From: a virus
Length of the DNA: 43,677 nt
Strand: one strand, 5' to 3'
IMG/VR virus record: IMGVR_UViG_3300045988_057586
Location: 1 to 43,677 of that record
The notes below the pieces were generated by a model. The model saw only the letters and a list, made by a program, of their open reading frames with translations, was not told where the DNA came from and ran no database searches. The position numbers were made by a program, and so were the translations under genes. Below, one piece after another: positions 35,777-39,467 of this stretch. How positions within the stretch are numbered: the first letter of the stretch is position 1; each line of letters begins with the position of its first letter.

Positions 35777-36647
35777 CTATCATCTGAATACGCCCGGCTA
35801 CGAGGAGTTCGGCGATGTCGAAGTGCTCAACCAGAACTTTGCCGCGATCGACGCCGAGCTGAAAAAGAATGCTGACGCGGTGGGCGAACGTGTCAAGACC
35901 ACTGAACTGGCCGAGAAGGTCAAGCAGACCGTCAAGGACGGCAGTCTGACCGCAAAGGATCTCGGCGCCGTATCAGCTGATACCAAGGGCAAGGCCGATG
36001 GTGTGGCCGGTCTGGACGGGAATGGCAAAGTGCCCTCCAACCAGCTGCCTGAAATGAATTACGAGGGCAAGGGCGCCGTAGATGAGCATAACAAGAGTAC
36101 ATCGGCGCACGCTGCACTGTTTAAGGCAATTAACGATTTGCTTGCGGCGCACGTCAAGGACACCGGCAACCCGCACAAGGTCACACCGGCGCAGATTGGT
36201 GCTATCGCGCTGACCCTGCTCGGCCAGCCGAACGGTCCGGCGGTGCTGGATAAGGACGGCCGTCTGACCGCTGACCAGCTCGGTGGCATGATCGGCGGCG
36301 AGAGCGACAGCGGCACCGGTGAACTGCAGGACACCGAGATGGAGGTCGGCACGATCACCAATGCAGGGGCGGGCTGGAACACCTACCATTTTAGAGAGGC
36401 GTTTGAGGGTATCCCGCAAGTTGTATGTCAGGCTGAGGACTTTGACGGCGTTGTACTGGTCAAGGACATTACCGCCGAGGGATTTTTGTACTGCCTGCGT
36501 ACCTTGCAGACCGGCAGTTACTACACCGGTAGCGCGACGGGCACCAATCCGTCGCACAGCGCGAACACGCTGGTCAGCGGCACAACGACCACGGCTGACA
36601 GTATCAAGATTAACTACATCGCAGTAGAGTATGGAGGCGAGCGATAA
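35760..36647 (+). CDS. Tail fibre protein (XkdV position)
   Basis: N-terminus NYHLNTPGYEEFGDVEVLNQNFAAID is typical of prophage fibre proteins. Confidence 0.75.
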   Translation: MEQTPNYHLNTPGYEEFGDVEVLNQNFAAIDAELKKNADAVGERVKTTELAEKVKQTVKDGSLTAKDLGAVSADTKGKADGVAGLDGNGKVPSNQLPEMNYEGKGAVDEHNKSTSAHAALFKAINDLLAAHVKDTGNPHKVTPAQIGAIALTLLGQPNGPAVLDKDGRLTADQLGGMIGGESDSGTGELQDTEMEVGTITNAGAGWNTYHFREAFEGIPQVVCQAEDFDGVVLVKDITAEGFLYCLRTLQTGSYYTGSATGTNPSHSANTLVSGTTTTADSIKINYIAVEYGGER

Positions 36648-37621
36648 TGTTAGGAGTAAATCAGTTGGACTTTATGAGCTACACAGCAGCCTTAAAGTCC
36701 AATTACCGCAAGGGTATTCGCCGGATGGAGGCAATCCTTGCAAACCCGGCCCACGCAAAGGAGTTTGCCGCCAACCTCGGTGGCGTGAGTGTCGTACTGG
36801 GCGTTCCGGTGAATCTGCCGGACCGCAACAGCGACAAGCTGCTTGAGCTGCTGCTCGGCAGTACGGTTGCCGATGATGCGGTGCTGACATGGATGCACCA
36901 GTTTTACGAGTTTACCGGTTGGGACGATCTGCTCAGTGATTCCGCCCGCTGCAAGGAGATGGCCAACAACCCGCTGATCTGGCGCGCGGCCGGCGGCAGT
37001 AAGCTGGCGGTTGGCAAGTCTATTGCTACGTTGGCGGGGCTGTCCTGCGCTGACTATGCAGACATCGACGCGGTAGCGGCTTCTCAGGTTGCTATGACGG
37101 CGGTAGCAGCCTCTCAGGTTGCTATGACGGCCATCCAGAAATCGCAGACTGCACTCAGCTCGATTGCAGCATCGAGCATGGCAACCGCTAAATACGCAGC
37201 CGGTGCAGCAGGACTCAATCCGGCCGACTATGCTGACATGACCGCGATTGCAGCCTCTCAGGTTGCTATGGCGGCTGTAGCGGCCTCCAACACCGCTACA
37301 AAGGCCATCGCCGCATCTCAGACCGCGTTGAACGCGATTGCGGGCAGTACAACGGCGCTGGATGCACTTTATGCCAAGAAAAGCCGCCTGACTGGTGCCA
37401 GCGCATCTAAATCCGGCAAATTTATTATTCTGCAAATTAGCAATGATAGTGTATTTAACACATCGAAGTACGGTTACGCAACTCTGTCTGATGGCAGCCA
37501 GCCCAGTTGGGAAAACTATAAAGGAAAATATGCTTTCTTTATGCAGTACAAGAAGATCGCCACATGCATCAAAAACGATACCGAAGGTGATGACTGGATC
37601 GACTATTTTCCGTGCGGTTGA
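36647..37621 (+). CDS. Variable tail-fibre/adhesin protein: constant N-terminus plus the currently expressed C-terminal tip
   Basis: ATG overlaps the fibre gene stop (TAATG). Decapeptide-periodic AASQVAM repeats contain the recombination cores. Confidence 0.75.
   Translation: MLGVNQLDFMSYTAALKSNYRKGIRRMEAILANPAHAKEFAANLGGVSVVLGVPVNLPDRNSDKLLELLLGSTVADDAVLTWMHQFYEFTGWDDLLSDSARCKEMANNPLIWRAAGGSKLAVGKSIATLAGLSCADYADIDAVAASQVAMTAVAASQVAMTAIQKSQTALSSIAASSMATAKYAAGAAGLNPADYADMTAIAASQVAMAAVAASNTATKAIAASQTALNAIAGSTTALDALYAKKSRLTGASASKSGKFIILQISNDSVFNTSKYGYATLSDGSQPSWENYKGKYAFFMQYKKIATCIKNDTEGDDWIDYFPCG
37082..37101 (+). repeat. Shufflon core site a (tctcaggttgctatgacggc)
   Basis: Part of a 30-bp tandem duplication, 37071-37130. 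Confidence 0.75.
37112..37131 (+). repeat. Shufflon core site b (tctcaggttgctatgacggc)
   Basis: Second unit of the 30-bp tandem duplication. Confidence 0.75.
37228..37275 (+). repeat. Shufflon site c: left arm of the 48-bp inverted repeat
   Basis: Reverse-complement match to 38191-38238 with one mismatch (37243 C versus T). Confidence 0.9.
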
Positions 37622-37647
37622 TGGCCTGAAACAGCCTGTTCTTTGTT

Positions 37648-37805
37648 ACGCATTATCTTCCTAAGACGTACCACGCACCTCAAATATGCTGTTTTAACAC
37701 GGCATATTTGAGAAAACGCGGTGCGAAGATGCATAGCTATACAAAATCAGCGGGCAAATCAGGCTATATTCGGGCGGTTACTGCGCATTAGGAAGATAAT
37801 GCGTA
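37648..37805. repeat. Perfect 18-bp inverted repeat (37648-37665 / 37788-37805) around an AT-rich spacer with an internal hairpin
   Basis: TACGCATTATCTTCCTAA and its exact reverse complement. The inner stem CTCAAATATGC / GCATATTTGAG starts at 37680. Confidence 0.8.
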
Positions 37806-37823
37806 GTAAATCACGTCTAAAAT

Positions 37824-38405
37824 TCAGGCTGCTTTGCAGGGAATATAGACAAATGTAACCCGGCCCGAGGAAGAAGAATCAGCGTTGGCGAAAGCCTCTA
37901 AACCGGCGGATGTAGTGAACAGATTGATGCTCTGTGCACTGCCTGTTGAAGAATACGTCTTGGCTCCGGATGCAGTTTCCGAAGTGTACACATAGCGCAC
38001 ACCGAATGTCCAACCAGAATTATTATGAGTCGCAGAGATGATAAAGCACGGACCGTTCGTTACCAATTTAGCATAATTACCGTTGTATGCACTGGTACTT
38101 ACGCTCTTTTTCAGCGGACTGGAAGCCAAAGCAGCCAATGCAACGGAAGAATTGGTAATTGCAACCCGAGCTTTACCCGATCCGGCAATGGCCGCCATAG
38201 CAACCTGAGAGGCTGCAATCGCAGTCATGTCAGCATAGCCCGACGGATCCAGATTAGCGAGGATTGCAACGGTCTTACCCATGACCGCACTGGTGGCTCC
38301 GGTAAACGTCTTCCACGCGGTCGCGTTGGCCTGCAGTGCTTTGATTGCGGTGTCGCTGCGCCACATAGCAGCCATTGCTACCGGCGATTTAACAATAGCC
38401 GCCAT
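37824..38405 (-). CDS. Silent alternative C-terminal tail-fibre cassette (no own RBS)
   Basis: Its ATG is the one inside core site e. Carries YADMTAIAASQVAMAA identical to the + gene. The tip is a diverged paralogue of the expressed one. Confidence 0.65.
   Translation of the reverse strand: MAAIVKSPVAMAAMWRSDTAIKALQANATAWKTFTGATSAVMGKTVAILANLDPSGYADMTAIAASQVAMAAIAGSGKARVAITNSSVALAALASSPLKKSVSTSAYNGNYAKLVTNGPCFIISATHNNSGWTFGVRYVYTSETASGAKTYSSTGSAQSINLFTTSAGLEAFANADSSSSGRVTFVYIPCKAA
38191..38238 (-). repeat. Shufflon site d: right arm of the 48-bp inverted repeat
   Basis: Inverted copy of 37228-37275. Confidence 0.9.
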
Positions 38406-38413
38406 AGCAACCT
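38398..38413 (-). repeat. Shufflon core site e (inverted aggttgctatggcggc)
   Basis: 16-nt exact inverted copy of 37260-37275, about 75 nt upstream of the recombinase ATG. Confidence 0.75.
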
Positions 38414-38489
38414 AATGCGCACAAAAACGCCCTGATTTTCGGGTTTCGTGTATAATAAATATACCAAAATCCGAAAGGGGAATCACAAT

Positions 38490-39467
38490 ATGACGGCCAA
38501 AACAGAGCTGACAAGGCAGCTTCTCGCAACTTTTGCGGCGGGAACGCCGACCGCAGAAGAACTCGACGCTATCTTAAAAGGCTACATTATTTTTAAGGAA
38601 AATGATGAGCAGCGCAGCGACTTGAAGCGGCGGATCAAGCACTATCTGGGCGCAAAGAAGATTGACGGTCTATCCGCCAGAACGCTGGCGAACTACCGCA
38701 GCCACCTTGAATTATTTGCATCTAAAGTGACCAAGAGCACGGCCAAAATCACTACCGACGACATCCGAGGTTACATTGCTTTTTTGGACGAGACGCACAA
38801 TCTCAAGGAAACGTCACTGCAGACGCATATCAACAGCCTGCGGGCGTTCTTCGGCTGGCTCACGATGGAAGAGAAAATCAAGAAGAACCCGATGAGCAAG
38901 ATCAAGTCCATCAAGATCGACAAGGTAGGAGCACGCCAGGCGCTGACGGTGGAAGAACTGGAACGGCTGCGTGACGCCTGCGTAACTTACCGCGAAAAGG
39001 CACTGATCGAGTTTCTGGTTTCCTCCGGCTGCCGTCTGAACGAGGTTGCTCAGCTGTCGGCCTCTAATCTCGATTTGATGAGCCGGTCAGTGCAGGTCAC
39101 CGGCAAGGGTGACAAGGATCGTGTTGTCTTTTTCAGCATCCGTGCACGCCTGATGATTGAGGAGTATATGGTATCCCGCAAGGGCGGCACCGGCTTGTTT
39201 GTCAGCAGTAAGGCACCCTACGAGCCGCTGAAACCTCGGGCGATCCAGCGCATGGTACGGGCAATCAGCCTGCGGGCCGGTCTGGATAAGCGGGTGCACC
39301 CGCACCTGCTGCGTCATACGTTTGCGACGTTGGCGCTTAACGGCGGCATGGATATTGCGGTCATTCAGCGGCTGTTAGGCCATGAGAATATCGCAACTAC
39401 ACAAATTTACGCGGAAATGTCGGATGAAACAATCCGGCATCAGTATAACAAATATGTAGCGGTTTAA
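38490..39467 (+). CDS. Tyrosine recombinase adjacent to the invertible fibre region (Rci-like role)
   Basis: Catalytic residues SGCRLNE, HPHLLRHTFAT and LGHENIATTQIYAEM. ATG 38490 follows AAAGGGGAA. The upstream GTG 38448 lies in a TATAAT-like box. Confidence 0.9.
   Translation: MTAKTELTRQLLATFAAGTPTAEELDAILKGYIIFKENDEQRSDLKRRIKHYLGAKKIDGLSARTLANYRSHLELFASKVTKSTAKITTDDIRGYIAFLDETHNLKETSLQTHINSLRAFFGWLTMEEKIKKNPMSKIKSIKIDKVGARQALTVEELERLRDACVTYREKALIEFLVSSGCRLNEVAQLSASNLDLMSRSVQVTGKGDKDRVVFFSIRARLMIEEYMVSRKGGTGLFVSSKAPYEPLKPRAIQRMVRAISLRAGLDKRVHPHLLRHTFATLALNGGMDIAVIQRLLGHENIATTQIYAEMSDETIRHQYNKYVAV

Follow-up and report, generated by a model that had tools for sequence, protein, structure and literature searches.

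Evidence for a programmed DNA inversion switch of tail-fiber tip and stalk in a temperate phage of the human gut

Host-range switching by inversion within tail-fiber genes is textbook knowledge for phages Mu and P1, and the form that uses a tyrosine recombinase has, to our knowledge, been described only a few times. Programmed inversions are enriched in tail-fiber genes across bacterial genomes. We analyzed the 43,677-nucleotide (nt) record IMGVR_UViG_3300045988_057586 from IMG/VR, the whole of which we call the window and which is the complete genome of a temperate contractile-tailed phage. At 36647-39467 the window carries a tail-fiber gene, a silent alternative tip on the opposite strand and a gene for an Xer-like tyrosine recombinase, with copies of a short motif in both orientations. 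Comparison of related contigs leads us to conclude that this locus is very probably a programmed site-specific inversion switch of fiber tip and stalk. A host-range switch of this kind is already known; the form found in the window is new, very widespread and unusual in layout.

A phage-borne shufflon run by a tyrosine recombinase, Rin, has been described in prophages of Bifidobacterium (Mavrich et al. 2018, PMC6109161) and of Eggerthella lenta (PMC8778435), and we compared it with the window system by its published description and its rix site. In both, a phage-encoded recombinase of the armless type (XerD-like in Rin) adjoins the receptor-binding locus, the sites are short and asymmetric (one of them within the gene in Rin), a constant N-terminus is joined to alternative C-termini, and the evidence comes from the comparison of isomers. 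Rin belongs to siphophages of Actinobacteria and has three to four tandem Rv cassettes, whereas the window system belongs to a contractile-tailed phage of Bacillota and has two convergent tips on nested arms, with an element that we call M between them. The window system differs further in its in-frame sites within a repeated stalk peptide, its variable stalk length and the inner element itself. The rix site TTCCCTAACCC had no match in the window at up to one mismatch, and no Bifidobacterium record was among the matches of our phage search.

A recombinase-flanked tail-fiber shufflon has also been reported for BV01-like phages of Phocaeicola vulgatus in a 2026 preprint (PMC13596623), the accessible portion of which leaves the class of recombinase unstated. 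The two systems agree in belonging to gut temperate phages, and the BV01-like region of ~1.7 kb overlaps the tail-fiber gene at its distal end. The BV01-like system differs in its motif (TGGGAGAACT), in its three non-homologous cassettes, in making six isoforms through different stops, and in the phylum of its host. Reads showed all configurations of the BV01-like locus, so that it has read-level proof, whereas the window system is known from assembled contigs. With these three reports in print (PMC6109161, PMC8778435 and, as far as its accessible text goes, PMC13596623), the novelty that a first-pass annotation of the window had claimed for a phage-borne shufflon was overrated. We found no description of the Butyricicoccaceae family of shufflons treated here in the searchable literature.

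That annotation had also ascribed to the locus the logic of the R64 shufflon (Rci, sfx, PilV), and in part this was right, since both systems combine a tyrosine recombinase with multi-site inversion and an in-frame change of a C-terminus. R64 sites have a conserved spacer and one conserved arm, the other arm being degenerate, and the asymmetry is considered a barrier to the deletion of DNA between direct repeats. Sites of the window show a similar asymmetry, with spacer and right arm conserved and the left arm degenerate within the gene, if cleavage falls where we presume. The topology and the enzyme do not fit the R64 model. Sites in R64 alternate, and segments invert singly or in groups, whereas those of the window system are nested around one pivot (> > > tip1 M tip2 < <), as they are in 121 loci; the enzyme is Xer-like; and the target is a phage fiber rather than a conjugative pilus adhesin. 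The window system is shufflon-like in its working but lacks two of four R64 features, the Rci enzyme and the alternating sites, and is not of R64 type.

Inversion also swaps tail-fiber C-termini under Mu Gin, P1 Cin and p15B Min, the last of them at multiple sites too, but these are serine invertases with a Fis-dependent enhancer, unlike the window system in chemistry and in site structure. The earlier statement that the window has no serine invertase held up: with a Hin sequence as query, the lowest tblastn E was 3.2, and there was no resolvase domain among the open reading frames (ORFs) scanned, some small ORFs lying outside the scan. Type I restriction-modification systems with hsdS inversion by tyrosine recombinases, for instance pneumococcal SpnD39III (PsrA/CreX), are surveyed in PMC9881135. 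In hsdS inversion, nested in-frame inverted repeats are found together with an adjacent tyrosine recombinase, and domains are exchanged between the expressed copy and partial copies that are silent. The hsdS systems act on a DNA-specificity subunit in a cellular host, whereas the window system acts on a virion protein in a phage.

The sites of the window share the core GGTTGCTATGRCGGC. A search of all 43,677 nt with up to two mismatches returned five copies, forward at 37087, 37117 and 37261 and inverted at 38191 and 38398, against a chance expectation of 0.18; five matches were reached in 0 of 100 shuffles. Plus-strand copies of the longer 20-mer tctcaggttgctatgRcggc begin at 37082, 37112 and 37256, and an inverted copy lies at 38191-38210. 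Site a (37082..37101, +; core 37087-37101) is composed of the spacer GGTTGC and the right arm TATGACGGC, and site b (37112..37131, +) follows it by 30 nt within a tandem unit of 10 amino acids (aa), AVAASQVAMT. Sites c (37256..37275, +) and d (38191..38210, -) form the inner ends of the arms of an inverted repeat (37218-37275 and 38191-38248; 58 nt, 93%), whose inner 48 nt, with one mismatch, are the inverted repeat recognized at the outset. The distal site e (38398..38419, -) has a 16-17-nt core at 38398-38413, the ATG of which is the apparent start of the silent ORF. The peptide read in frame at the crossover sites is ..SQVAM(A/T)A.., and the positions that had been reported for all these elements agreed with the sequence.

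The first-pass annotation had overlooked that site e is two-armed, as it had overlooked element M. In reverse complement, site e reads CGCATTA-GGTTGC-TATGGCG, two imperfectly inverted arms around a 6-nt spacer, and it is the sole shufflon site of this form, which is the usual layout of core sites for tyrosine recombinases. The in-gene sites keep the spacer and an invariant right arm, TATGRCGGC, and have a degenerate left arm. This opposition of a distal full site to one-armed in-gene sites is a new finding, and on our analysis the one-armed asymmetry may explain why inversion occurs rather than deletion. Across 150 distinct contexts from close relatives, synonymous positions in the core never vary, while those just outside it vary freely; the search pattern fixed part of the core, and only its free positions carry the argument for constraint. 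The non-coding CGCATTA beside the distal site is kept in every lineage, although the DNA beyond it differs. Diverged lineages, with recombinase genes at ~72-78% nucleotide identity, retain the whole architecture and have the spacer GACCGC or TACCGC.

The fiber gene expressed in the present state (36647..37621, +; 324 aa) comprises a constant N-terminal domain (36647-37081, +), helical stalk repeats and tip 1. It matches the PHROG tail-fiber families phrog_7809 (E 1.6e-12) and phrog_18723, a Pfam search gave no family match, and one of its more than 3,600 homologues carries the name 'Tail fiber protein [Caudoviricetes]'. This homology, together with its place at the end of the baseplate module, identifies it as a tail fiber. 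Its variable part holds stalk module B (37132..37255, +), exchangeable between the arms, and the tip 1 cassette (37276..37621, +), ending ...DYFPCG. On the minus strand lie the silent tip 2 cassette (37824..38190, -), ending ...VYIPCKAA, and stalk module E (38211..38397, -), also silent in the window. The minus-strand ORF 37824..38405 has 193 aa, starts at the distal-core ATG as first described and is preceded by an in-frame TAG; its protein cluster has 41 members of 183-233 aa, plus fragments of 86-161 aa.

Each of the six possible single inversions (three forward by two inverted sites) yields an open, in-frame fusion ending in tip 2, with predicted lengths of 273, 283, 331, 342, 352 and 400 aa, which bears out the claim that any pair of opposed sites would fuse in frame. 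Use of the distal site adds 69 residues to the predicted fusion, where about 70 had been estimated. Among fiber proteins that have this N-terminus in common, either tip is found, and the lengths span 273 to 473 aa, for the most part in increments of 10 aa, so that variation is not confined to the tip but extends to the stalk. The earlier count of three to four receptor-binding variants has to be replaced by two tips per genome, the other variants differing in stalk modules or in length by 10-aa steps. The proposal that the tips are diverged paralogues lacks statistical support (tip 1 against tip 2, BLASTP E 0.055, not significant), and within each type the tips were too uniform for useful homology profiles. 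There are at least 12 tip families, two to a locus and in many pairings.

We searched the predicted fusion between sites c and d against a set of 5.8 billion proteins. One protein, P0122 (331 aa), equaled the prediction at 330 of 331 residues, the one exception falling on the variable R of core a. The contig that encodes it, L014, follows the window from 33623 to 37275 and continues with 38248-37311 inverted, an exact single inversion between c and d with its junction at site c. All four single-nucleotide polymorphisms in the left repeat arm of L014 are of the c type, so the crossover fell in the final 32 nt, a stretch that contains the core. A second contig, L001, 99-100% identical to the window, runs from the constant region through inverted E (38190-38413), segment D in the same orientation and inverted B (37116-37279) to the recombinase; this arrangement needs two nested inversions and use of the 17-nt distal site. 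The isomers come from near-identical metagenome contigs (97-100% identity) and thereby support multi-site in-frame inversion that swaps the fiber C-terminus, and tip 2 is expressed as a fusion in L014, L015, L018, L027, L053 and L070. The start of tip 2 is joined to varied left contexts that diverge up to core position -1, and the same is true of tip 1, which places the exchange point inside the 15-nt core.

A wider survey covered 126 loci fetched through the recombinase and 35 through the fiber constant domain. In 121 of 121 loci with sites, the sites were oriented > ... > < ... < around one pivot. Left-arm modules were sense and right-arm modules antisense in 102 of 102 cases (tips 61/61, B 23/23, E 18/18). 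Thus tip 1 was sense whenever left of M (18 cases) and antisense whenever right of it (23 cases), the position and orientation of tip 2 were coupled in 20/20, and module B appeared 11 times as B+ on the left arm, 12 times as B- on the right, and in no other arrangement. Module E was E- on the expressed arm in 10 loci and E+ adjoining the recombinase in 8, namely 7 and one locus, L082, assigned by hand. Such coupling of position to orientation is predicted exactly by inversion and not by transposition or duplication.

In JGI sample 3300029676, two different neighbors adjoin the unique DNA that lies upstream of the recombinase, and module B occurs on both arms, which suggests a mixture of isomers within one sample, a mixture of strains being the alternative. 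The start of one contig from this sample (L002 1-100) is a fold-back in which inverted recombinase-upstream DNA is joined through the full site to the tip 1 arm. At the other end of L002, B- adjoins the recombinase, and a second contig from the sample (L130 5430-5933) has B+ on the expressed arm.

We propose that the locus works as follows. A fixed N-terminal domain is followed by a repetitive helical stalk with in-frame sites, and downstream lies an inverted, promoterless tip 2 with further stalk modules and sites. The Xer-like recombinase would pair any forward site with any inverted site and invert the interval between them, the spacer GGTTGC being the presumed region of strand exchange. 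Inversion would fuse the constant domain to the other tip and would carry B, E and 30-nt units between the expressed and silent arms, so that each lysogen lineage could produce virions that bear one or the other of two tips and whose stalks differ in length. The acting enzyme, the place of cleavage, the rate of switching and the effect on host range are what we infer in this scheme.

The gene proposed to encode the invertase (38490..39467, +; 325 aa) starts 77 nt past the distal core, where about 75 had been estimated, and its catalytic residues are complete (R182, K206 or K209, H272-x-x-R275, H298 and Y307). The protein matches Phage_integrase (PF00589, 3.8e-38) and SAM-like domains (PF02899, 5.9e-10) in Pfam, scores 238 bits with the NCBIfam XerA model (cut-off 220), and has XerA 5hxy as its best PDB match, XerC-like proteins and XerD also being among the best. 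It has no lambda-type arm-binding domain and belongs with the two-domain, Xer-like members of the superfamily. A single pairwise BLASTP comparison with R64 Rci (NC_005014 102002-103156) gave 21% identity over 262 aa and an E of 0.032; the similarity appears to be of superfamily level only, and by this comparison the protein is not an Rci relative. In 7/7 contigs that were fetched by the fiber constant domain and reach far enough, the recombinase lies 1.1-1.6 kb downstream. The window has just three occurrences of the full-site motif, each within 850 nt upstream of the recombinase gene. Because of the conserved adjacency and the position of these full sites, we think that the adjacent recombinase presumably drives inversion.

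Several points weigh against this interpretation. The number of sites per locus ranges from 3 to 13, so slippage or unequal exchange must also act there. An exact look-up in the protein collection found none of the other five predicted single-step fusions. The isomers come from different samples and may record old, fixed events, and they are contigs, not reads. The enzyme is assigned by adjacency and site architecture, and the receptor-binding role of the tips is presumed; an AlphaFold2 model of the fiber from a 65-sequence alignment was unusable (pLDDT 38, pTM 0.19). Finally, the assembly breaks that we describe below can also be caused by repeats alone.

The strongest rival, which we nevertheless consider improbable, is that RecA-type homologous recombination or template switching between stalk repeats made the rearrangements and that the recombinase is incidental. 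The inverted repeat of up to 58 nt and a stalk full of 30-nt repeats would offer substrates for such exchange, which would also account for the varying repeat copy number that site-specific inversion alone leaves unexplained. On the other hand, the distal site is used despite having only 16-17 nt in common with its partners, and one and the same 15-nt core holds the breakpoints in every case, however similar or dissimilar the flanks. Nor would RecA-type exchange lead one to expect frozen synonymous core positions, a conserved non-coding half-site flanking the distal core in all lineages, or a recombinase linked in every one of the seven testable contigs.

A little less probable still is site-specific inversion catalyzed in trans by a recombinase of the host or of another phage, with the Xer-like gene serving dimer resolution or integration. 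Trans-acting invertases are known, such as Mpi of Bacteroides (PMC6109161), and in Terrisporobacter phage TPELB_ph1 and Clostridium phage phiCp-D the same slot is occupied by a recombinase of 40-45% identity, while a silent tip and a clear inverted repeat are absent. This idea sits poorly with the gene order and the 77-nt distance, both kept across lineages whose recombinase genes range from 72 to 100% nucleotide identity, with the confinement of the full sites to the DNA just upstream of that gene, and with the separate Int-type integrase that the phage carries at its end. Least probable of all, and very unlikely, is that ORF 37824-38405 is a separately expressed gene (a second fiber or a chaperone) whose common motif is a structural repeat of paralogues: it has an AGG 7-9 nt upstream of its ATG and is annotated by gene callers with a cluster of 41 members, but many contigs have this tip in an in-frame fusion with the constant domain, the apparent start shifts with the module adjoining the distal site (the cluster members and fragments differing in length), and no promoter-like site faces the ORF from the recombinase side, two 9-of-12 matches lying inside it and the total not exceeding that in shuffled sequence.

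The two named phages were examined as carriers of recombinase homologues. The genes lie at 4854-5849 in L127 (TPELB_ph1, PP197244) and 4860-5837 in L128 (phiCp-D, MW478291), are annotated 'integrase' and stand between the last fiber gene and the holin. We found no silent tip in either phage and no convincing inverted repeat near the recombinase, in DNA that is AT-rich. L127 has a weak 22-nt inverted repeat (77%; 2618-2639 and 4804-4825), the right arm of which is ~30 nt upstream of the recombinase gene. In the window, a lone right-arm half-site TATGACGGC (38489..38497, +) overlaps the recombinase start codon and is found only in the lineage of the window; it may be autoregulatory or a coincidence, about 0.1 such sites being expected in 8 kb. 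A perfect TATAAT lies at 38451-38456, without a -35 element. A promoter and terminator scan of the switch region gave a site count not above that of shuffled sequence, and an Rfam scan of 36400-39600 gave no match at E up to 1.

Between the convergent tips lies element M (37642..37810), ~120 nt between 23-nt inverted arms, and this nested invertible element is a new finding. The arms hold full sites of their own, CGCATTA-TCTTCC-TAAGACG (37649-37668) and CGCATTA-GGAAGA-TAATGCG (37784-37803). From arm to arm M measures 154-156 nt in all lineages, and its two spacers agree with one another throughout and vary in concert from lineage to lineage. We observed all four combinations of D and M orientation. 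In three of these states the pieces for tip 1, M and tip 2 agree with the window at 100% (the window with L049; L001 with L002; and L014), and the fourth, in the less closely related locus L027, has M at 100%, tip 2 at 99.5% and tip 1 at 87.6% identity to it. Since all the states occur, M inverts independently of the tips, and it is independent also between L110 and L114, from a lineage with a recombinase gene only 75% identical. The same enzyme probably inverts M and switches the tips, and the different spacer of M probably prevents crossing with the shufflon sites.

Inversion of M alters no coding sequence, and promoter, terminator and Rfam scans found none of these features in M. M contains a hairpin with an 11-bp stem (37679-37712; CTCAAATATGC...GCATATTTGAG) that shows compensatory changes in related lineages. 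We ruled out the hairpin as an intrinsic terminator, since it lacks a following T-run on both strands, whichever way M is turned. The view of M as a mere RNA or DNA stem was likewise ruled out, as all four orientation states with D occur.

In the diverged lineage of L110 and L114, a block of M, tip 2 and site d (L114 197-779; L110 442-1023) is 99-100% identical to window 37647-38228, while the recombinase gene is ~75% identical. The block ends exactly at the outer edge of M. Spacers of two classes (GGTTGC and TACCGC) occur in the locus of these contigs, where no inverted partner accompanies the imported sites of the GGTTGC class. In sequence terms, the block is evidence for lateral exchange of a tip cassette with its boundary at the outer edge of M. 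We tentatively suggest, as a possibility that we hold to be rather less than even, that one enzyme runs two nested orthogonal inversion systems, with the spacers GGTTGC and TCTTCC, and that tip cassettes are exchanged between co-resident phages. The outer tip and stalk shufflon and the inner M switch would share the half-sites CGCATTA and TAWKGCG and differ in the spacer. A tip cassette would then be bounded by a core site 5' and an M site 3' with unlike spacers, which would allow whole cassettes to be swapped, as in recombinase-mediated cassette exchange; the idea that M sites serve as the 3' ends of tip cassettes is speculative. Cassette exchange, if true, would explain how at least 12 tip families come to stand in many pairings on conserved backbones.

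Many related contigs end inside the locus. This was so for 30/46 close relatives and for 28/35 contigs fetched by the constant domain; of these 28, 16 break off no more than 150 nt from the first site. Four Logan contigs begin 16-31 nt ahead of window position 38414, which puts their starts at the distal core or just outside it. The locus is a systematic cause of broken phage contigs, with 60-80% of the examined assemblies ending inside it, and viromics pipelines will consequently mis-call or truncate such genomes. The family is very abundant in human gut metagenomes, with thousands of fiber homologues and the wide range of tip types described above. As stalk modules move between the arms, the switch varies the length of the fiber and not only its tip. 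The system offers a tractable model for a question raised for Rin, namely how an armless tyrosine recombinase enforces inversion over deletion; a single two-armed site with several one-armed in-gene sites, and a second orthogonal pair, are directly testable features. What makes it valuable is that the family is abundant, that its sites are clearly asymmetric and that it has the nested element M.

The host of the window phage is a gut member of the Butyricicoccaceae, Agathobaculum or Butyricicoccus, and the phage is a prophage of a human-gut Clostridia bacterium. Named relatives of the fiber gene are from Agathobaculum and Butyricicoccus, and related contigs are from human gut metagenomes. Products of the window include a family A DNA polymerase, VapE, an SNF2 helicase, terminase, an SPP1-type portal and a Mu F-like protein, together with a sheath, Baseplate_J, a Gp48-like protein, fiber-like genes, XkdX and an amidase. 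The order up to the fiber gene is sheath initiator, Baseplate_J, Gp48-like (Mu Gp48-like), fiber-like U and fiber. PBSX-type labels had been given to the neighbors of the switch: that of XkdX is supported by a Pfam match (39840-39980), while XkdV is unconfirmed, as is XkdW, the 117-aa ORF at 39486-39839 being without a Pfam XkdW match. The Int-type integrase, separate from the recombinase, is at the right end of the window (42353-43660). A phage-borne tRNA-Lys with the anticodon TTT lies at 22659-22733 in the head-morphogenesis region. In the related phage contig L015, a large-terminase gene with TerL_ATPase and nuclease domains (1510-3159) stands between the genes for a CHAP tail lysin and the sheath initiator, an unusual position for a terminase.

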